Below the pieces are notes generated by a model. It did not search any database and was not told the DNA's origin. It saw nothing but the letters and a program-made list of their open reading frames with translations. The translations under genes were made by a program, and so were the position numbers. A DNA stretch of 64,000 bases from Escherichia coli (GTDB lineage: Bacteria > Pseudomonadota > Gammaproteobacteria > Enterobacterales > Enterobacteriaceae), in assembly GCF_013315695.1 (NCBI RefSeq), contig NZ_CP054353.1. One strand, 5' to 3'. Of this stretch, positions 1 through 62,757 are shown piece by piece (the stretch's first letter is position 1; each line of letters begins with the position of its first letter).

Positions 1-3000
1 CCCGCGCCAGATACACCAGCGTTACCGGTTGGTATTCATCAACGGCAACCGCCGCCACAAAGCGATCGTCACGGAACTCAATGTGCTTAATACTCGCCTG
101 CTGCATCTGGTTCAGTAAGTTCTGCACTTCGCCACCACTTTGCTCCAGGCTGGCGCTACCGTTCGCCAGATTCTGGTTTTCCAGTTCCAGACCCGCTGGC
201 AGCAGATCCACGACCAACGCATCCGGCACGCTGTTACTGGCTTTAACCTGCAACCACACCAGCACCAGATCGCCGCTACGTAACGAGTCCAGCGATTTGC
301 TCTTACCATCAGTACCAAGAATATGACGCTCGATTTGCAGCACATTGTTCGCCGGTAAAGGTGCGGATTGCGGATAACCGCTGGCATCCACACGCAGCCA
401 TAACGGCTGATCGCCACTGTTGCTCACCTGCAAGGTGGCAAGTTGATCGCTATTCAGATTGCTGTTTTGCGCTTTCTCGCCTGTCAGCGGCTCAGCTGAG
501 AAAGAGGTTTGCGCCTGCCATTTACCCGGTAAATCCTGAACCGTACGGGCAGCCAGGAACAACGCGTTACTTTCCTGCGTCGATAGCCAGCGTTCACCAA
601 ACGCCTGCTGCGAAAGCGTATTCAGCAAAGTGTTCTGCTCATCGGGTAGCAGTTTATTTTCTTCCAGCAAGGAGAGCATTAACGCGTTGTCGCGCAGTGG
701 GCTACCGTAATCACCCAGCCATTTCCGCTCATCATTACGCGGCGTTTTCAGCGCCAGCGCAATTGCTTCTTCACCACGCGTCGCATCACCCATGGTTTTC
801 AGCGCAACGCCAAGTTGCAGCAGCGGTAAACCAGAAGCGGCATCTGCACGATGCTCCCAGATTTCACGCAGCGCACCCAGTGGAGCTTTTTGCTGACGGG
901 CCAGCACCAGCGCAGCGTAAGACTGTACGGCGAATTTACTGGCTTTGAGATTATCCGCGTACGGGATCGACATCATGCCCGGATCTTGTAAATAGCGCAG
1001 CAGACGCTCATTTCCCCGGTTAATGGCGTCTGTCGGCACGCTGTAACCCTGCTCACCTGCGCGGACCAGGAAATCCATCACGTAAGCCGTCAGCCAGTAC
1101 TCTTCGTCACCGTTTTTATCCCACAGCGCAAAGCCGCCGTTATCACGTTGCATTTGCAGCAAACGGGAAATGCCGATATCGACCGATGCACGGCGTTTCT
1201 CATCACTGTCGCCTTTGATGCCCAACGCCTGCAGTTGGGCTGCGTTGGTATAAAGTGACGGGAACAGGCCGCTGGCGGTTTGCTCAAGACAGCCGTACGG
1301 ATACGCTTTTAACTCTTTGATATAACGTGCGATGTTCAGCGGTGGTTTGCCGCTCAACAACAATTGCCCTTCCAGCGTAACAGGCGAGAAGTTTTGCAAT
1401 CCATCCGCCGGAATCGCCCATGTCTCACCAGGCTGCAACGCCGTACCGTAATTGACCGTTTGTGCCGGGAACGCCGGACGGACGCCGATTTTCCACTGTT
1501 TATGCTGATCGGCAACGGTTTCCCCGGGTAACGCTAACCCGCTAATGGTGGCCTGAATTTCTCCATCGCCATAACCCGGCAATGCTCGCACCGGGATAAA
1601 CAGCGTAGTACGCACACCTGGCGCTAATTCAACGGCTGCGGGTGAATCGCTGACCAGTTCAAGCAAACCACTGGCGGTCAGGGCAACGTTCAGTTTTTGC
1701 GGTTTATCGGTAAGATTAGTGATATCCAGCGTCAGACGCGAGGTATCGCCACTCGCCATAAAGCGCGGCATGTTCAGTTCAGCAATCACCGGTGCGGCAA
1801 CTATCACTTTGCTTTCGTTGCTTCCGAAGTCATCTGCCGTCCAGGCTTGCGCCATGACGCGCAATTCACCGTTAAAATCGCCAATTGGCAGTGTAACCGA
1901 GCCTTCACCCTGTTCGTTGAGCGTTACCGGCAGCGCCTGCTGCGCGACAATATTGACGTGATTGACCGGCGGTTTACCACCACGTTTCAGCTCATCACCA
2001 TCACCACCAAAACGCAGAGCTGCCAGACGCCCCTGACCTTCAATGACCTGACCGTAAATATCGTAAATGTCTGCGCCATAGCGTTTCTGACCAAAGAACG
2101 CCTGCCACGGATCTGGCGTGACGTAATCAGTAATATTCAGCACACCGCTATCAACGGCAGACACCAGCACATTCACCTGTTTTGGCATCTCACCATTTTT
2201 AGTGCTGGCTTTAATTTTCACGGTTAATGGCTGATTGGGGCGCATTTTTGCTGGTGTTTCCAGCGCCAGATCGAGGCGACGGTTTTCATCACCAAGCGGC
2301 AGATGCAACACCCCAACTGCGCGTTTTGGCGTCGCAGAGCGAGATTTATCGCCAGGACGTACCACCAGCGTACTTAAATACAAATCATGACGATTCCAGG
2401 TTTTATCGACCGGAATCGTCAGATCCAGCCCTTGAGCCGGAACATCAATCTCTTGCCACCACAGCGGCCCTTCACTGGACTCGACCATCGCATAACCTTT
2501 ACCCGCCGTTGGCGCGGCAATATGCAACTTAATGGTATCGCCAAGGCGATAACTGGCTTTATCCAGTTTCAGCGTGACACGGTCGGGTCGCACGACACCG
2601 CTCCCGTCGCTGTTGTCCTGCCAGCTATAGCCAGCCCAGAAACGCACACTACTGACCGCTTCATTCGGCGCTTTGACTTCCAGACGATAAGCGCCCCACT
2701 CTACCGGGAAACTGACCTTACCGGTTTCGTCCGCTTTCAGATCCAGAGTTTGTTCATTTTCGATCAGATCTTTTTGATCAAACTGTGACTGCCAGCCTTC
2801 ATCTTCTGACCAGTTCCAGTAGTAATCGCGGCGTTCGCGAATCAAGCGCACCTGCAAGCCCGACACGGCTTTTTTTACGCCTTGCGCATCGCTATAAACG
2901 ATGTCAAAAGCGGCGTTACTGCCTTCATCAACAATGGGCTGTTTCACCGTGCTGTCAGTGCGATAATCGTAAACCGATTTCGAGGCGAACTGCGGACGGA

Positions 3001-4849
3001 TCCCCGGCAATGCATCGGCAGGCCAGATAGCCTGCTCAGCGCGGCGCGTCACCGGGCGACCGCCCGATTCCAGCAAACTACCCTGGAAAATAACCTGTAA
3101 TGGGGAATGCGTTTCCTTCCACTGGCTTTCTGTAGAAACTTCGCCACGCCCTTTATCATCCAGCGTCAACTGAACTTCATCCAGCGTGCGGGAAAGATTT
3201 TCGGCAGCTATCTCGCCGAATTCGAAACCAGGTAAGGCTGACACAGCTTCACGCAGTGGGCGCAGGAAAAGTTGCCCTTGCAAAGTATTACCATTAGCAG
3301 GCGCACCGTACAGGTAGTACCCCACCACGGAGAATTTCACTTCATCTTTCGGCGTTAGCGGGGTTTTCTCACCGGTCAGATTCAGCGCCATGCGCTCTGG
3401 CATAAAATCTTCGACGTGGAAATCCCACATCCGGTACTGGTTATCGCCCGTGTTAGCGCGAATATGCCACATACCGGTTGCCGCATTGCTATCGAGTGGC
3501 CAGGTAAAGTGGTAGAGGCCATTCTCCGGCTGACTAACGACGCTCCTGAGTACCTGCCCGTCGGGTTTAATCACGTCTAACTTGATGGGTTGATCGGGCA
3601 ATGCTTTACCATCTGCATCACGCAATAAACCATTGAGGATGACTGTTTCACCCGGGCGATAAAGATCGCGCGGGCCAAACATGAAAAACTGTTTGCTATA
3701 GCCTGGCGCGCCAGCAATGTTAAATTCTGCTAAGTCCAGCGCCGGAAGTTTTAAATCGAGTAGCGTTGTCTGACCGTCTTTACGCGCCAGCAGTAATGCC
3801 GCGTTTTTATCATTTTCCAGCTGCACATGCCCCTGAGCATCACTGGTTGCCTGAGTCAGAGTCTGCCCTTTCTCATTTAATAAAGAGACTTCTATTCCTT
3901 GCTGGGCCGCGCCGTTTTCCAGACTTTGGGTAAAGATATCCAGACGATTGTGATAACGGTGAGCTGAAACGCCGATATCACTTAACGTAAACAGCGTCGC
4001 GGGATTACTGTAATCGTAACGTCCAGCCTGATTCATCACAGCCAGATACACGCCTGCCTGCTGAAGCGGTTTGATATCGCCCAGCGGCAGCAATAATTTT
4101 TCACGGGTGTTACGCGCAGGATTGAGATCAAACCGTCCAGTGTAGACCAGATCCGCCATCTGCAGCAGTTTGTCTGACTGCCAGTTCGCCAGCGAATTGC
4201 GGTATTCCCATTGGCTAATGAAAGCGGGCAGTGATTCTGGTTTCACACGGAAGAAGTTAACATCGACATTGTTAACGTTGAGCGCCATTACCGGCAGCCC
4301 TTCAATAACTTTACCAGGTAACAACGAACCACGGCTGGCAAAACCGACGCTGGGTTGGATATCACGGGTAGTTATAGTTTTTTCGTAATCTTTACTGAAG
4401 GTTGCGTTGTTGAGTGCTTTGACCTCCTTGCCAATAGTGACGATCAAATCACGTTTCGGTTCGAGGTGGCGTAAACGCAACTCTTTAAGATTATCTGACA
4501 GCTCCCAGGCACCATCCACTTTGCCGCTTTTCTTATCGACGACATGGATAACGCGTGAGAAATCCTGATCCGGATCGAGAGGAATGGAGAACGTCAGCAC
4601 CAGCGTGGCTGCGCCATCAAGTTGAACTTCAGAGAGATCCAGCAATGTCAGCGCCTTACCGGCACTCTGTTGGGCCAGTTTTTGTCGCTCCGGCGCGGAA
4701 AGTTTTGCTGAACTCACGTTTTCTGAAGAGGCCGCTTTAGTAACTTCAGAAGGCGCATCTTTTTTCACCGCTGTTGGCGCGTTATCGTTGTTGTCGCACC
4801 CTGCCAGCGCCAGCATTAGCATGCAGGCGGCTACGCGTAACTTTTTCAT
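1..4849 (-). CDS. yfhM: Alpha-2-macroglobulin family lipoprotein; C-terminal end runs off the window start
   Basis: Minus-strand frame open from ATG at 4849 (AGGGA ribosome-binding site upstream) to the window edge. N-terminus reads MKKLRVAACMLMLALAGC with a lipobox. Position upstream of sseA matches K-12. Missing from the ORF track because no stop lies in the window. Confidence 0.85.
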   Translation of the reverse strand, partial: MKKLRVAACMLMLALAGCDNNDNAPTAVKKDAPSEVTKAASSENVSSAKLSAPERQKLAQQSAGKALTLLDLSEVQLDGAATLVLTFSIPLDPDQDFSRVIHVVDKKSGKVDGAWELSDNLKELRLRHLEPKRDLIVTIGKEVKALNNATFSKDYEKTITTRDIQPSVGFASRGSLLPGKVIEGLPVMALNVNNVDVNFFRVKPESLPAFISQWEYRNSLANWQSDKLLQMADLVYTGRFDLNPARNTREKLLLPLGDIKPLQQAGVYLAVMNQAGRYDYSNPATLFTLSDIGVSAHRYHNRLDIFTQSLENGAAQQGIEVSLLNEKGQTLTQATSDAQGHVQLENDKNAALLLARKDGQTTLLDLKLPALDLAEFNIAGAPGYSKQFFMFGPRDLYRPGETVILNGLLRDADGKALPDQPIKLDVIKPDGQVLRSVVSQPENGLYHFTWPLDSNAATGMWHIRANTGDNQYRMWDFHVEDFMPERMALNLTGEKTPLTPKDEVKFSVVGYYLYGAPANGNTLQGQLFLRPLREAVSALPGFEFGEIAAENLSRTLDEVQLTLDDKGRGEVSTESQWKETHSPLQVIFQGSLLESGGRPVTRRAEQAIWPADALPGIRPQFASKSVYDYRTDSTVKQPIVDEGSNAAFDIVYSDAQGVKKAVSGLQVRLIRERRDYYWNWSEDEGWQSQFDQKDLIENEQTLDLKADETGKVSFPVEWGAYRLEVKAPNEAVSSVRFWAGYSWQDNSDGSGVVRPDRVTLKLDKASYRLGDTIKLHIAAPTAGKGYAMVESSEGPLWWQEIDVPAQGLDLTIPVDKTWNRHDLYLSTLVVRPGDKSRSATPKRAVGVLHLPLGDENRRLDLALETPAKMRPNQPLTVKIKASTKNGEMPKQVNVLVSAVDSGVLNITDYVTPDPWQAFFGQKRYGADIYDIYGQVIEGQGRLAALRFGGDGDELKRGGKPPVNHVNIVAQQALPVTLNEQGEGSVTLPIGDFNGELRVMAQAWTADDFGSNESKVIVAAPVIAELNMPRFMASGDTSRLTLDITNLTDKPQKLNVALTASGLLELVSDSPAAVELAPGVRTTLFIPVRALPGYGDGEIQATISGLALPGETVADQHKQWKIGVRPAFPAQTVNYGTALQPGETWAIPADGLQNFSPVTLEGQLLLSGKPPLNIARYIKELKAYPYGCLEQTASGLFPSLYTNAAQLQALGIKGDSDEKRRASVDIGISRLLQMQRDNGGFALWDKNGDEEYWLTAYVMDFLVRAGEQGYSVPTDAINRGNERLLRYLQDPGMMSIPYADNLKASKFAVQSYAALVLARQQKAPLGALREIWEHRADAASGLPLLQLGVALKTMGDATRGEEAIALALKTPRNDERKWLGDYGSPLRDNALMLSLLEENKLLPDEQNTLLNTLSQQAFGERWLSTQESNALFLAARTVQDLPGKWQAQTSFSAEPLTGEKAQNSNLNSDQLATLQVSNSGDQPLWLRVDASGYPQSAPLPANNVLQIERHILGTDGKSKSLDSLRSGDLVLVWLQVKASNSVPDALVVDLLPAGLELENQNLANGSASLEQSGGEVQNLLNQMQQASIKHIEFRDDRFVAAVAVDEYQPVTLVYLAR

Positions 4850-5916: not shown

Positions 5917-5947
5917 TAAAAAACCGCCGAATTTGGCGGTTTTTTAT
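5917..5947 (+). terminator. Intrinsic terminator downstream of sseA
   Basis: GC hairpin CCGCC(gaattt)GGCGG followed by a run of six T. Confidence 0.7.
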
Positions 5948-6005
5948 TGCTGGTCTGGTTCGCGGCCTTTCCAGCAGGTTGTATTACTGCAAGTGTATCT
6001 CGTCT
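5917..6005. repeat. Intergenic repeat module, copy A (terminator hairpin + GGTTCGCGGCCTTTCCAGCAGGTT + GCAAGTGTATCTCGTC)
   Basis: Near-identical about 60-bp segment recurs at 6961-7025, and the 16-mer GCAAGTGTATCTCGTC recurs at 7206-7221. Confidence 0.75.
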
Positions 6006-6028: not shown

Positions 6029-6037
6029 AACGATGTC
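6029..6037. repeat. IS1 copy 1 target-site duplication, left (AACGATGTC)
   Basis: Identical 9-mer directly flanks the other end of the element at 6806-6814. Confidence 0.9.
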
Positions 6038-6092
6038 GGTGATGCTGCCAACTTACTGATTTAGTGTATGATGGTGTTTTTGAGGTGCTCCA

Positions 6093-6368
6093 GTGGCTTC
6101 TGTTTCTATCAGCTGTCCCTCCTGTTCAGCTACTGACGGGGTGGTGCGTAACGGCAAAAGCACCGCCGGACATCAGCGCTATCTCTGCTCTCACTGCCGT
6201 AAAACATGGCAACTGCAGTTCACTTACACCGCTTCTCAACCCGGTACGCACCAGAAAATCATTGATATGGCCATGAATGGCGTTGGATGCCGGGCAACAG
6301 CCCGCATTATGGGCGTTGGCCTCAACACGATTTTACGTCACTTAAAAAACTCAGGCCGCAGTCGGTAA
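6093..6368 (+). CDS. insA: IS1 InsA (transposition inhibitor / N-terminal part of InsAB' transposase), 91 aa
   Basis: ORF translation [37 protein letters not shown]... matches IS1 InsA as I recall it. Confidence 0.95.
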
Positions 6369-6790
6369 CCTCGCGCATACAGCCGGGCAGTGACGTCATC
6401 GTCTGCGCGGAAATGGACGAACAGTGGGGCTATGTCGGGGCTAAATCGCGCCAGCGCTGGCTGTTTTACGCGTATGACAGGCTCCGGAAGACGGTTGTTG
6501 CGCACGTATTCGGTGAACGCACTATGGCGACGCTGGGGCGTCTTATGAGCCTGCTGTCACCCTTTGACGTGGTGATATGGATGACGGATGGCTGGCCGCT
6601 GTATGAATCCCGCCTGAAGGGAAAGCTGCACGTAATCAGCAAGCGATATACGCAGCGAATTGAGCGGCATAACCTGAATCTGAGGCAGCACCTGGCACGG
6701 CTGGGACGGAAGTCGCTGTCGTTCTCAAAATCGGTGGAGCTGCATGACAAAGTCATCGGGCATTATCTGAACATAAAACACTATCAATAA
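6287..6790 (+). CDS. insB: IS1 InsB reading frame (joined to InsA by -1 frameshift to make the transposase), 167 aa
   Basis: ORF translation [21 protein letters not shown]... matches IS1 InsB. A6C slippery motif at 6344-6350 lies in the insA/insB overlap. Confidence 0.93.
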
Positions 6791-6805
6791 GTTGGAGTCA
6801 TTACC

Positions 6806-6814
6806 AACGATGTC
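6806..6814. repeat. IS1 copy 1 target-site duplication, right (AACGATGTC)
   Basis: Matches 6029-6037 exactly. Confidence 0.9.
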
Positions 6815-6960
6815 AAGTAGATAAAAAAGGATAGATTTTGAATTCATTTGGCTTATCAGTCCGAATTCAGACAAATATAAACAAATCCCGCTTAATATTA
6901 AAATATACTAACTGGTAAAAGATATTACTTAAACGTGTAATTTCACTTTCTTTAAACAAC

Positions 6961-7030
6961 AAAAAACCGCCAAAATCAGGCGGTTATTTGTTGCTGGTTT
7001 GGTTCGCGGCCTTTCCAGCAGGTTCACTTG
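6961..7030. repeat. Intergenic repeat module, copy B (includes a terminator-like hairpin at 6961-6992)
   Basis: AAAAAACCGCCaaaatcaGGCGGTTATTTGTTGCTGGTTTGGTTCGCGGCCTTTCCAGCAGGTT is near-identical to 5917-5980. Confidence 0.75.
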
Positions 7031-7285
7031 TGTTGCATGAACAACGCAGGTGCCTCACAGCAAAAGAATACTCGCTGTTAAGAAATTTTGTGTCAAGTAA
7101 AAAACGAGTAATTATTTTTCGGTTAGCGTATTATTGACACCGACCCTTTCCGCCGTCTCGCAAACGGGCGCTGGCTTTAGGAAAGGATGTTCCTTGGCCG
7201 TAAATGCAAGTGTATCTCGTCGCTTGCTATCGCGGCAATATCGCCAGTGGTGCTGTCGTGATGCGGTCTTCGCATGGACCGCACA

Positions 7286-7411
7286 ATGAAGATACGGTGC
7301 TTTTGTATCGTACTTATTGTTTCTGGTGCGCTGTTAACCGAGGTAAATAATAACCGGAGTCTCTCCGGTAACAATTTATTGGTGGTTAACAACCTTCAGA
7401 ACAGCAGGTAA
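7286..7411 (+). CDS. Hydrophobic small ORF inside ryfA, 41 aa (45 aa from ATG at 7274): MKIRCFCIVLIVSGALLTEVNNNRSLSGNNLLVVNNLQNSR; candidate TimP-like small membrane toxin
   Basis: Open frame translated by hand. One predicted transmembrane helix. Lies within the terminated transcript. Weak ribosome-binding site. Below the 60-aa cutoff of the ORF track. Confidence 0.4.
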   Translation: MKIRCFCIVLIVSGALLTEVNNNRSLSGNNLLVVNNLQNSR

Positions 7412-7417
7412 GCCCGA

Positions 7418-7444
7418 ATGCCGCCCTTTGGGGCGGCATATTTT
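7418..7444 (+). terminator. Intrinsic terminator of the ryfA-like transcript
   Basis: ATGCCGCCC(tttg)GGGCGGCAT followed by ATTTT; overlaps the sseB stop codon on the other strand. Confidence 0.75.
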
Positions 7445-13459: not shown

Positions 13460-14674
13460 TTAATGATGAGCCCATTCGATGCTGTTCAGATCCACGCCCT
13501 GCTTGTACATTTCCCACAGCGGAGAAAGGTCACGCAGACGACCGATGGATTTACGAACTAACTCGATGGTGTAGTCGATCTCTTCTTCAGTAGTAAAACG
13601 ACCTAAAGAGAAACGGATAGAGCTATGTGCCAGCTCGTCGTTCAGCCCCAGCGCGCGCAGCACGTAGGACGGTTCGAGGCTTGCTGACGTACAGGCGGAA
13701 CCGGAAGAAACCGCGAGGTCTTTCAGCGCCATAATCAGCGACTCACCTTCAACGTAGTTGAAGCTGACGTTGAGAATGTTCGGCGCACCGTGTTCCAGGT
13801 CACCGTTCAGGTAAACTTCTTCGATATCTTTGATGCCGTTCCACAGACGGTTACGCAGGCCGCGCAGACGTTCCATCTCGGTCGCCATCTCTTCTTTTGC
13901 TATGCGATAGGCTTCGCCCATACCGACGATCTGGTGAACAGGCAGAGTACCGGAACGCATACCGCGCTCGTGACCGCCGCCGTGCATTTGCGCTTCGATA
14001 CGTACGCGCGGTTTACGACGCACATACAGCGCACCAATACCTTTCGGGCCATAGATTTTGTGACCGGAGAAAGACATCAGGTCAACTTTCAACTGGCTCA
14101 GGTCGATAGGCAGTTTGCCCACGCTCTGGGTTGCATCAACGTGATAGATAATGCCGCGAGCACGGCACATTTCGCCGATAGCCGCGATATCCTGCACCAC
14201 GCCGATTTCGTTATTTACGTGCATGATGGAAACAAGGATGGTGTCGTCACGCATCGCTGCTTCGAGTTCTTTCAGGTCGATAATACCGTTACGCTGCGGT
14301 GCCAGGTAAGTGACTTCAAAACCTTCGCGCTCCAGCTGACGGCAGGTATCCAGTACCGCTTTGTGTTCGGTTTTGCTGGTGATGATGTGCTTGCCTTTTT
14401 TCTGATAAAAGTTAGCAGCACCTTTGATCGCCAGGTTGTCAGATTCGGTAGCACCAGAGGTAAAGACGATTTCACGCGGATCAGCGCCAACCAGATCGGC
14501 AATCTGATTACGAGCGATATCTACCGCTTCTTCAGCCTGCCAGCCGAAACGGTGAGAACGGGAGGCCGGGTTACCAAAGGTTCCGTCCATCGTCATAAAC
14601 TGCATCATTTTCTCGGCAACACGCGGGTCCACCGGCGTGGTTGCGGAGTAGTCGAGATAAATCGGTAATTTCAT
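13460..14674 (-). CDS. iscS: Cysteine desulfurase IscS, 404 aa
   Basis: ATG at 14674 gives [14 protein letters not shown]...; PLP-lysine motif [10 protein letters not shown]. Confidence 0.96.
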
Positions 14675-14785
14675 TGCTCTATAAACTCCGTACATCACTC
14701 AATGCAAGGAACCAGGCTGCCGGCTGGATGTACGACCGTGTTTACGGAGTGTTTAGCACTCCGGCCTGATTCTGAATTCTTTTTA

Positions 14786-26286: not shown

Positions 26287-26295
26287 TATCTTGCA
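26287..26295. repeat. IS1 copy 2 target-site duplication (TATCTTGCA)
   Basis: Identical 9-mer at 27064-27072 directly flanking the other end. Confidence 0.9.
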
Positions 26296-26310
26296 GGTAA
26301 TGACTCCAAC

Positions 26311-26814
26311 TTATTGATAGTGTTTTATGTTCAGATAATGCCCGATGACTTTGTCATGCAGCTCCACCGATTTTGAGAACGACAGCGACTTCCGTCCCAG
26401 CCGTGCCAGGTGCTGCCTCAGATTCAGGTTATGCCGCTCAATTCGCTGCGTATATCGCTTGCTGATTACGTGCAGCTTTCCCTTCAGGCGGGATTCATAC
26501 AGCGGCCAGCCATCCGTCATCCATATCACCACGTCAAAGGGTGACAGCAGGCTCATAAGACGCCCCAGCGTCGCCATAGTGCGTTCACCGAATACGTGCG
26601 CAACAACCGTCTTCCGGAGCCTGTCATACGCGTAAAACAGCCAGCGCTGGCGCGATTTAGCCCCGACATAGCCCCACTGTTCGTCCATTTCCGCGCAGAC
26701 GATGACGTCACTGCCCGGCTGTATGCGCGAGGTTACCGACTGCGGCCTGAGTTTTTTAAGTGACGTAAAATCGTGTTGAGGCCAACGCCCATAATGCGGG
26801 CTGTTGCCCGGCAT
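26311..26814 (-). CDS. insB: IS1 InsB reading frame, 167 aa
   Basis: Identical protein to the 6287..6790 ORF. Confidence 0.93.
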
Positions 26815-27008
26815 CCAACGCCATTCATGGCCATATCAATGATTTTCTGGTGCGTACCGGGTTGAGAAGCGGTGTAAGTGAACTGCAGTTGCCATGTTTT
26901 ACGGCAGTGAGAGCAGAGATAGCGCTGATGTCCGGCGGTGCTTTTGCCGTTACGCACCACCCCGTCAGTAGCTGAACAGGAGGGACAGCTGATAGAAACA
27001 GAAGCCAC
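26733..27008 (-). CDS. insA: IS1 InsA, 91 aa
   Basis: Identical protein to the 6093..6368 ORF. Confidence 0.95.
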
Positions 27009-27063
27009 TGGAGCACCTCAAAAACACCATCATACACTAAATCAGTAAGTTGGCAGCATCACC

Positions 27064-27072
27064 TATCTTGCA
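27064..27072. repeat. IS1 copy 2 target-site duplication (TATCTTGCA)
   Basis: Matches 26287-26295. Confidence 0.9.
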
Positions 27073-27084
27073 AAGGGATTGGTT

Positions 27085-27507
27085 ATGAACACACTACGTT
27101 ATTTTGATTTTGGAGCTGCCCGCCCCGTTTTGTTATTAATTGCCCGTATCGCCGTGGTCTTAATTTTCATTATTTTTGGTTTTCCCAAAATGATGGGCTT
27201 TGACGGTACGGTCCAATATATGGCCTCGCTGGGCGCGCCGATGCCGATGCTGGCAGCTATTATTGCGGTAGTTATGGAAGTGCCCGCCGCGATATTAATC
27301 GTGCTTGGCTTTTTCACCCGTCCGCTGGCGGTGCTGTTTATTTTCTACACGCTGGGTACAGCGGTAATTGGTCACCATTACTGGGATATGACCGGCGATG
27401 CGGTTGGGCCAAATATGATTAATTTCTGGAAGAATGTCAGTATCGCTAGCGCATTCCTGCTGTTGGCAATTACCGGGCCGGGGGCGATTTCTCTCGATCG
27501 CCGTTAG
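27085..27507 (+). CDS. yphA: DoxX-family inner membrane protein YphA, 140 aa
   Basis: ATG at 27085 with AAGGGA 6 nt upstream; four predicted transmembrane helices. Confidence 0.88.
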
Positions 27508-45137: not shown

Positions 45138-45323
45138 ACAACAAAGCCGGGAATTACCCGGCTTTGTTATGGAATAAGGCGGTGCCTAACTCGACGTTTC
45201 GCCCGAGGGTTGATATAGCTACGCTGATATCAGAAGTTGGACGGCAGGCACCTTGTTGTGCGTCATTCGAATTTTATGTAGCACGTCCCGAAGGGGCTGA
45301 CATAAGTCGGTGAATGAGCCACT
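45138..45323 (-). ncRNA. glmY: GlmY small RNA
   Basis: Minus-strand sequence AGTGGCTCATTCACCGACTTATGTCAGCC...AAAGCCGGGTAATTCCCGGCTTTGTTGT matches GlmY as I recall it; terminator hairpin at the 3' end; lies directly upstream of glrK. Confidence 0.85.
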
Positions 45324-54520: not shown

Positions 54521-54595
54521 TGTTGGAATCGTGTGCTGCACAAAATTAAAGTTGTAAAGTGAACCCCCCCGTTCCTTACCAGTTCGGGGGTTTTA
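54521..54595 (+). ncRNA. ohsC: OhsC antitoxin small RNA (boundaries approximate)
   Basis: Promoter TTGTAC-N18-CATAAT; the 19-nt element TTGGAATCGTGTGCTGCAC at 54523-54541 is a direct repeat of 54274-54292 in the shoB leader, giving antisense pairing; intrinsic terminator at 54564-54594. Confidence 0.7.
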
Positions 54596-54619
54596 CTTTA
54601 TAAAGAGAACGGTATTTTT

Positions 54620-56482: not shown

Positions 56483-58095
<1,613 letters not shown>

Positions 58096-58293
58096 TCAGC
58101 ACACGAAACAGACCTGATATACATGGCTCTGCTAACTGCTTCGCTGCAGTTTCAGTTTACCGGTATATGGGGACCAACGCTGTTTCGTGTGCCGTGGCAA
58201 CCTGGAGGTGCCAACCTTAAACTTCGGGGGAATATTCTATACACAACGACGGGGGATGTCGTTAGCCACGGGAGATTTATCTCATAAATAATT

Positions 58294-59327: not shown

Positions 59328-61127
<1,800 letters not shown>

Positions 61128-61324
61128 AAAGTATGATTATTGTGCCTTAATGCCCGGTTAACCAGGCTTTTAGAAGTCGCTGTTCTGAGCTTAACGTCTG
61201 TATTAATAGAAACGCCGCATTCTACACTACAACATTGAGGCGAGGAAATGTTCATACCGTATGGATTGTGGTATCTGGAAACGTCCTCGCATTTGTTATG
61301 CAAAATGCAACAAAGCCAGTGAAA

Positions 61325-61804
61325 TCACTGGCTCGCGTCTTCCGAAGATGTTTCAAATCGCACAAGGCCAGGCGGCAAGGCCACGCTTAAGATGATCGGT
61401 TGCCATTCTGCCCGGGCAGCAAACTTACGCGAGTAGCCACGTGCAATCAGGAATCCACCAACGCCACCGAGAATCGCACCGCATAATGCTGCAATATCTG
61501 AAGCAAAGAGTAGCTGAAATAGTGAAGCGATGAGGAATAGTCCCACCAACGGCGACATATAAACCAGTAATGCGGAGCTAAGCAGGCTGCCTTCGGCGAT
61601 TCCTAATTCTACTTTTTGCCCCGGCACTAACGGTTCATCACAGGGTACGACAATGGTATGCGTAGTTTGCGGGCCAAGTTTATTCAACACGCGGCTACCG
61701 CAACCGGCGCGTGAAGCGCAGCTGCTGCATGAGGCTTTAACATCACAACTAACCAGCGCCTGCCCGTTTTCCCAGGAGACGACGGTAGCCCACTCTTTGA
61801 TCAT
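61325..61804 (-). CDS. rseC: SoxR-reducing system / sigma-E regulatory protein RseC, 159 aa
   Basis: Synteny downstream of rseB; 4-bp overlap. Confidence 0.92.
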   Translation of the reverse strand: MIKEWATVVSWENGQALVSCDVKASCSSCASRAGCGSRVLNKLGPQTTHTIVVPCDEPLVPGQKVELGIAEGSLLSSALLVYMSPLVGLFLIASLFQLLFASDIAALCGAILGGVGGFLIARGYSRKFAARAEWQPIILSVALPPGLVRFETSSEDASQ

Positions 61805-62757
61805 TGCGCTGCCCCGAACTTAATATTCTCGGCAATGCGTTTCGCCGTTTGCGGCGGCAGTTCACCGACAATGGTGATTTCGGCGTTATCACGTACGCTT
61901 GTACTGACGGTTCTGCGTCCGGTGCGCAACATCTGATCGGTGCTCGATGGCGTAGCGCGGTTAACGTTTACCGAAAAGCTGAATAATCCGTCGGAATAGA
62001 GACGTGATTCGATAGGCATGTTGTCCATCGTCGGTAGCGGACGTCGACTACTGGAAACTTCGCTAAAACCCTGTGGCAACCAGGTTGGCGTCCAGCTGAA
62101 TTTAGCTTTTTCACCTACAGGAACAGAAAGCAACGGCGGCAAATTTGCCTTCGCCAGCGTCTGCATACTGCTGCTGATATCCTGATTGACATTAAAAGCA
62201 ATCACGCGAAATTGTTCCAGCGTTTCACCATCGCGATCAAGGAGATCAACCCTCATCGGTAATTTCGATTCGGTGTCCATCCACACGATGTAGCTGTAGC
62301 GTGTACCATCTCGGGCAACCACGCGAATAACTTCGCAAAGACGATCAGCAATACGCGTGCGCCCGACGGAGATAAAGTCGTAGTAAGGAGAAAGGCGTTT
62401 GAAATCGGTATAGATGAGCGATGGCAGAGAATCAACAATGTAATCGCCATTAAGCGTGAACGGTTCAAGTCCCGGTTCAAAATAGCTGATCTCATTGCCG
62501 CGCTGTACCACTTCCCGGCGCGGGCCATCCATTTGCAACAATTGTGCAAGAGGACGGTTATCGAGGCGTGCATGTCGATAACGCAGAGACTCAACACCCT
62601 GTTTATTGATGCTGATGAATGACAGCTCGTAATTCAGTGACTGACTGGCCAGGTTCATCTGCTGTAATAACGCCCCGGACGCGGGAGTGGCCGAGGCGTT
62701 AGCAGAGAATAACAGGCTACCTGTCACTAATGACATGGCAAACCAAAGTTGCTTCAT
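61801..62757 (-). CDS. rseB: Sigma-E regulatory periplasmic protein RseB, 318 aa
   Basis: Signal peptide MKQLWFAMSLVTGSLLFSANASA. Confidence 0.95.
   Translation of the reverse strand: MKQLWFAMSLVTGSLLFSANASATPASGALLQQMNLASQSLNYELSFISINKQGVESLRYRHARLDNRPLAQLLQMDGPRREVVQRGNEISYFEPGLEPFTLNGDYIVDSLPSLIYTDFKRLSPYYDFISVGRTRIADRLCEVIRVVARDGTRYSYIVWMDTESKLPMRVDLLDRDGETLEQFRVIAFNVNQDISSSMQTLAKANLPPLLSVPVGEKAKFSWTPTWLPQGFSEVSSSRRPLPTMDNMPIESRLYSDGLFSFSVNVNRATPSSTDQMLRTGRRTVSTSVRDNAEITIVGELPPQTAKRIAENIKFGAAQ

Follow-up and report, generated by a model that had tools for sequence, protein, structure and literature searches.

Two copies of the insertion sequence IS1 lie in a 64,000-nucleotide stretch of an Escherichia coli genome (contig NZ_CP054353.1 of assembly GCF_013315695.1; this whole stretch is called the window here), and they raise the question of whether elements that look intact are also able to move. 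A sequence-only reading had answered that they should be, on the grounds that both copies keep the A6C programmed frameshift motif, intact insA and insB frames and intact terminal inverted repeats. That conclusion appears sound at the level of sequence, and it is very likely that both copies are complete, autonomous and transposition-competent IS1 elements of the IS1A type, each of which arrived by its own simple transposition event. The reasoning behind it was insufficient, however, because the nearly immobile IS1B, IS1C and IS1D elements of E. coli K-12 have an intact A6C, intact ORFs and intact inverted repeats as well; these features are thus necessary but not sufficient. The competence conclusion holds because of the insertion polymorphism of the element and its near-identity to elements that are active.

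Structure of the two IS1 copies

Both elements in the window belong to the IS1 family, IS1A type, and every feature that defines this type at the sequence level is present in each of them (Table 1). They are inverted relative to one another and 19,490 bp apart, and no third IS1, whole or partial, was found within the window. The interval that these identical inverted copies bracket holds timP, sseB, pepB, the isc-hsc-fdx operon, trmJ, suhB, csiE and the hca operon. Their terminal repeats (GGTGATGCTGCCAACTTACTGAT at IRL and GGTAATGACTCCAACTTATTGAT at IRR) have 0 mismatches at both ends of copy 1 and of copy 2 and are identical to those of K-12 IS1A-E and of IS1R from R100, so the earlier statement that the inverted repeats are intact was correct. 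A promoter-like sequence, CTGCCA-16-TATGAT at positions 6045-6072, overlaps the IRL of copy 1, and the same site is found within the IRL of copy 2; a weak promoter that overlaps IRL has been reported for IS1 (PMC12428005).

The insA and insB frames of copy 1 overlap by 82 nt and the A6C run at 6344-6350 is inside this overlap, as the sequence-only reading had described. It had deduced the presence of the run in copy 2 from identical translations; the run is now read there directly in a nucleotide sequence that is 100% identical to copy 1. Its further claim that both ORFs are full length in both copies also proved right (insA 91 aa, insB 167 aa).

Table 1. Positions in the window of the two IS1 copies, their parts, and further Rfam matches above gathering score
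Feature	Position	Strand	Remark
IS1 copy 1, complete 768-bp element, IS1A type	6038..6805	+	767/768 identical to K-12 IS1A/IS1E
Copy 1 left target-site duplication AACGATGTC, 9 bp	6029..6037	.	9-mer single-copy at MS 21-1 empty site
Copy 1 right target-site duplication AACGATGTC, 9 bp	6806..6814	.	perfect match to left duplication
Copy 1 IRL GGTGATGCTGCCAACTTACTGAT	6038..6060	+	0 mismatches; also recovered as inverted-repeat pair by repeat finder
Copy 1 IRR, inward reading GGTAATGACTCCAACTTATTGAT	6783..6805	-	0 mismatches; repeat-finder pair with IRL
insA of copy 1, 91 aa, GTG start	6093..6368	+	InsA sequence equals K-12 InsA; Pfam PF03811 and PF12759
insB ORF of copy 1, 167 aa from first ATG, -1 frame relative to insA	6287..6790	+	expressed solely within InsAB'
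A6C slippery heptamer AAAAAAC of copy 1	6344..6350	+	offset 307-313 in the 768-bp element
insAB' transframe gene of copy 1, predicted 232-aa product by -1 shift within 6344-6350	6093..6790	+	Zn-ribbon, HTH and DDE domains
IS1 copy 2, complete 768-bp element	26296..27063	-	100% nucleotide identity to copy 1 across all 768 nt
Copy 2 target-site duplication TATCTTGCA (+ strand), IRR side, 9 bp	26287..26295	.	9-mer single-copy in relatives' empty site
Copy 2 target-site duplication TATCTTGCA (+ strand), IRL side	27064..27072	.	12 nt upstream of yphA ATG at 27085
insA of copy 2	26733..27008	-	same length as copy 1 insA
insB ORF of copy 2	26311..26814	-	same length as copy 1 insB
A6C frameshift heptamer of copy 2	26751..26757	-	read directly in nucleotides
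insAB' transframe gene of copy 2	26311..27008	-	100% identity to copy 1
Rfam: iscRS stability element	14676-14785	-	expected for E. coli region
Rfam: GlmY	45176-45323	-	expected for E. coli region
Rfam: ohsC antitoxin sRNA	54522-54599	+	expected for E. coli region
Rfam: rncO	58011-58225	-	expected for E. coli region
Rfam: AsrC antisense RNA	61009-61840	+	expected for E. coli region

The frameshift site and the predicted InsAB' protein

The window contains 25 occurrences of the heptamer AAAAAAC, where about 15 would be expected, so its presence alone is uninformative and it is its position in the insA/insB overlap that matters. In the insA frame it is read UUA AAA AAC, that is, as A-AAA-AAC, a slippery heptamer of the X-XXY-YYZ form, and its offset of 307 in the element is common to all eight reference IS1 copies that were compared, including IS1F with its 72 differences. 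Programmed -1 ribosomal frameshifting takes place at the A6C of IS1 (PMC12428005, PMC12903888); insB has no independent translation and is expressed solely within the InsAB' fusion (PMC12428005). About 1.6-2% of transcripts yield InsAB', the value of ~1.6% being that of IS1E, and when the frameshift is forced transposition rises about 1000-fold (PMC12428005; PMC12903888).

Reading insA of the window element through UUA AAA, then one base back and onward, predicts an InsAB' protein of 232 aa; this model assumes the sequence ...LKKLRPQ, and the residue at the shift site would be K86 with P-site slippage or N86 with tandem slippage. The predicted protein contains the Pfam domains Zn_ribbon_InsA (residues 1-36), HTH_Tnp_IS1 (residues 43-86) and DDE_Tnp_IS1 (PF03400, residues 102-232, the full model); PF03811, PF12759 and PF03400 all score above cut-off and are essentially full length, and the NCBIfam equivalog transpos_IS1 (NF033558) matches with 245 bits against a cut-off of 100. 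At the same coordinates, E. coli MSB1_4I is annotated with an "IS1-like element IS1A family transposase" with "programmed frameshift" (WP_103215986.1). A pseudoknot has been mentioned for the IS1 frameshift region (PMC12428005). Folding of the RNA downstream of A6C (6338-6440) gave -27.5 kcal/mol, no more stable than shuffled sequences (z = +0.71), by a method that does not cover pseudoknots, and a simple hairpin is unsupported by this value; an Rfam search found no family inside IS1.

The mechanism described for IS1 in the literature is the following. The weak promoter over IRL transcribes insA and insB', and ordinary translation gives InsA (Zn-ribbon plus HTH), which binds the inverted repeats, represses the promoter and competes with the transposase. 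In a small fraction of the transcripts (~1.6-2%) the ribosome slips by -1 on A-AAA-AAC and so bypasses the insA stop codon 18 nt downstream; the resulting InsAB' DDE transposase acts mainly in cis on both inverted repeats and inserts a copy of the element elsewhere, leaving a target duplication of 8-9 bp. IS1 insertion is known to duplicate 8-9 bp of its target (PMC12428005; PMC12903888), and the IS1 transposase is mainly cis-acting, with action in trans possible when its level is high (PMC12903888).

Relation to other IS1 elements and evidence for mobility

The window element was aligned position by position with IS1A-F of K-12 MG1655, with IS1R of R100 (next to catA1; NC_002134 21225-21992), on which the classical work on transposition and frameshifting was done, and with one IS1 of REL606 (NC_012967 23291-24058; one of the 28 REL606 copies). 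The sequence-only reading had proposed a nucleotide alignment to a reference IS1 as a check on competence, and a point mutation in the inverted repeats or the frameshift window as the result that would count against it; no such mutation is present. Over the 35 nt at either end, the window element does not differ from IS1A-E, IS1R or the REL606 copy, and all its differences from these elements fall outside the inverted repeats and the frameshift window. IS1A and IS1E, which are the 'consensus' IS1 of Smith et al. 2025 (PMC12428005) and are identical at 767 of 768 nt, agree with the window element in IRL, IRR, the promoter region, insA, A6C and everything after position 444, and they have the same 232-aa InsAB' architecture; the one difference is G444 in the window element versus T444, which gives R130 instead of S130 in InsAB'. 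The REL606 copy, also identical at 767 of 768 nt, encodes an identical InsAB' (WP_103215986.1), and its only difference, T262 versus A262 in the window, is synonymous. R100 IS1R is 762/768 identical and has the same length, identical inverted repeats and the same A6C offset; it differs at positions 262, 298, 301, 304, 393 and 396, three of which precede the slippery run by 3-9 nt, and the sole residue change is F81 in its InsA and InsAB' versus L81 in those of the window element.

The remaining K-12 elements are somewhat more distant. IS1B/IS1C and IS1D are each 760/768 identical to the window element and share its inverted repeats, A6C and ORF lengths. IS1B/IS1C differ at positions 127, 262, 298, 301, 304, 393, 396 and 704 (L81F and L217Q relative to the window element), and IS1D at positions 50, 127, 298, 301, 304, 393, 396 and 631 (L81F and H193Y). 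IS1B and IS1C (2164-2931 and 13635-14402 of locus L008) and IS1D (2779-3546 of locus L009) have an IS1R-like L81F background, on which L217Q (IS1B/C) or H193Y (IS1D) is their only InsAB' difference from the active types. IS1D H193Y is two residues after E191 in the motif RIERH; IS1B/C/D also have C127T, and IS1D has G50T in the leader. The window element has neither the private changes of IS1B/C (L217Q, which is T704A, and C127T) nor those of IS1D (H193Y, which is C631T, G50T and C127T), and L217Q, H193Y, C127T and G50T are the obvious candidates for changes that inactivate K-12 IS1B/C and IS1D. IS1F has 72 nt differences spread throughout, its predicted -1 product stops at 162 aa, and its insB7 is annotated as a pseudogene. 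R130 is present in the window element, IS1R, IS1B/C/D, IS1F and the REL606 copy, and S130 only in K-12 IS1A/E among the variants compared. Since R130 is found in every other variant, S130 looks like a derived state specific to K-12 IS1A/E.

Comparison with other genomes shows that the element has moved. A perfect 9-bp duplication borders each copy, AACGATGTC in the case of copy 1 and TATCTTGCA (+ strand) in that of copy 2, and E. coli MS 21-1 has neither insertion and carries the 9-mer in question just once at each of the two empty sites. With E. coli MSB1_4I, which came from a human rectal swab in Australia, the window shares 26,294 of 26,295 aligned bases as far as the copy-2 junction; in that genome copy 1 is present with the same junctions and the hcaD-yphA site is empty, and isolate AF3 has the same pattern. 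Among the complete E. coli genomes in the collection none has both insertions and none has the exact copy-2 insertion. Copy 2 is absent from MSB1_4I at a divergence of about 1 substitution per 26 kb and is therefore a very recent gain, and this type of IS1 is active in the clone. In short, the IS1 sequence type has transposed very recently in the clone of the window; what the polymorphism shows is movement of the sequence type, and the donor may have been a copy other than copy 1. The target duplications, the empty sites, the copy-2 polymorphism and the identity of InsAB' to that of REL606 thereby add to the earlier case for competence. REL606 carries IS1 in 28 copies, and a study of clones evolved from it counted 63 new insertions of the element (PMC7881107).

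The exact 768-nt sequence is also widespread. Of 60 rows drawn at even intervals from the ranked list of 9,597 matching records, 4 were 100% identical to it, and numerous E. coli genomes carry it, at a variety of sites, as do plasmids of several genera. MSB1_4I and AF3 each have at least 40 IS1-matching places, compared to 19 in MS 21-1 and a species median of 11, which suggests an expansion. There is an outside chance that the R130 form of InsAB' is more active than the S130 form of K-12, or that a host restraint has been lost, and that an IS1 burst is under way in a human-associated lineage like that of MSB1_4I. Against the competence of the two copies it can be held that repression in trans may be strong when some 40 or more IS1 copies make InsA.

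CE12-1, GN25 and CUPF12, whose hits at first pointed to an insertion at the copy-2 site, were rejected as such, as they have independent neighbouring IS1 insertions with other duplications. That of CE12-1 has the duplication CCAATCCCT, which directly adjoins the copy-2 target (L012-L014, hcaD-yphA-yphB), that of GN25 is inside yphA, and that of CUPF12 is in the yphA/yphB spacer. In TUM9812 an IS1 with an 8-bp duplication, CGAATTCA, lies about 45 bp from the copy-1 site (L015, sseA-timP). The hcaD-yphA-yphB and sseA-timP spacers therefore seem to be recurrent IS1 targets in unrelated E. coli lineages.

The alternative that deserves most attention is that both copies are intact but crippled in the manner of K-12 IS1B/C/D, making a weak transposase and having been moved only in trans by other IS1 elements; we consider this improbable. 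In strain BW25113, IS1A and IS1E account for >99.9% of IS1 transposition (PMC12428005), and IS1B, C, D and F move essentially only when transposase is supplied in excess (PMC12428005; PMC12903888). IS1B/C/D are thus almost immobile in spite of their intact A6C, ORFs and inverted repeats (PMC12428005), and they share G444/R130, formally a non-consensus position, with the window element, whereas the proven IS1A/E do not have it; mobilisation in trans is possible at high transposase levels (PMC12903888), and the donor of copy 2 need not have been copy 1. Residue R130, however, is also that of R100 IS1R and of the REL606 protein; the private changes of IS1B/C and IS1D are missing from the window element, and G444/R130 is all that it has in common with them. 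Moreover, its exact 768-nt sequence occupies many sites in many genomes, and a new insertion has appeared within a divergence time of 1 SNP per 26 kb. Because the IS1 transposase is mainly cis-acting (PMC12903888), such a fresh copy most likely came from a donor with a working enzyme of the same sequence.

It is still less probable that copy 2 is an artefact of assembly, in which a collapsed pile of reads from repeated IS1 copies was placed between hcaD and yphA. Repeats commonly cause misassembly, the closest genomes contain IS1 at some 40 or more places, and no genome of the collection has the exact copy-2 insertion. The junctions of copy 2 are nevertheless exact, and they enclose a 768-bp element with a perfect 9-bp duplication that is single-copy in three relatives; these exact junctions and this duplication indicate transposition and not a misjoin, and the flanks of copy 2 stay collinear with MSB1_4I. 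Finally, although identical inverted IS1 copies that bracket 19.5 kb have the geometry of IS1-based compound transposons, there is next to no chance that the pair bounds a composite transposon with which this DNA arrived as one unit, and we reject it: the copies have separate duplications (AACGATGTC and TATCTTGCA) and outer flanks that do not match each other, the interior genes from timP to hca listed above are core E. coli genes in their usual place, and the order and position of these genes do not change in MSB1_4I, where copy 2 is missing, or in MS 21-1, where both copies are missing and the sites are empty.

We return, then, to two very probably competent elements that arrived separately, and infer that each of them frameshifts and transposes at the normal (low) rate in its present context. 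Flanking transcription has been reported to modulate IS1 activity, and the two contexts differ, copy 1 being downstream of the sseA terminator in the same orientation and copy 2 convergent with hcaD.

Genomic surroundings and consequences

Copy 1 is inserted in the spacer between sseA and timP/ryfA, 19 nt upstream of an Rfam match to the IS128 sRNA (6825-7003); ryfA follows at 7140-7444 and the timP toxin ORF occupies 7286-7411. Two stretches of 63 nt, at 5918-5980 and 6962-7024, are repeats of one another with 84% identity and include a terminator hairpin. Copy 2 lies between hcaD and yphA, a gene of the DoxX family, and ends 21 nt upstream of the yphA start codon with its IRL facing that gene. 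Its insertion has probably cut yphA off from its promoter, or else has put the gene under any transcription that leaves the IS1 end outward. As identical sequences in inverted orientation, the two copies are a ready substrate for inversion of the 19.5 kb isc/hsc/hca region by homologous recombination; no net inversion has occurred, since each copy has a matching duplication on its two sides.

IS1 has been a characterised element since 1989, together with its A6C frameshift and InsAB', and the IS1 copies of the window are already known, textbook biology with nothing new in them. They are of little import beyond annotation. The comparison carries a general lesson for calls made from sequence only, in that K-12 IS1B/C/D show that intact motifs do not prove activity. 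For the strain itself, copy 2 is a clone-specific marker that separates the genome of the window from MSB1_4I, and the expression of yphA is probably disturbed by it; the live IS1 copies of the strain can cause further insertions, deletions and polar effects.
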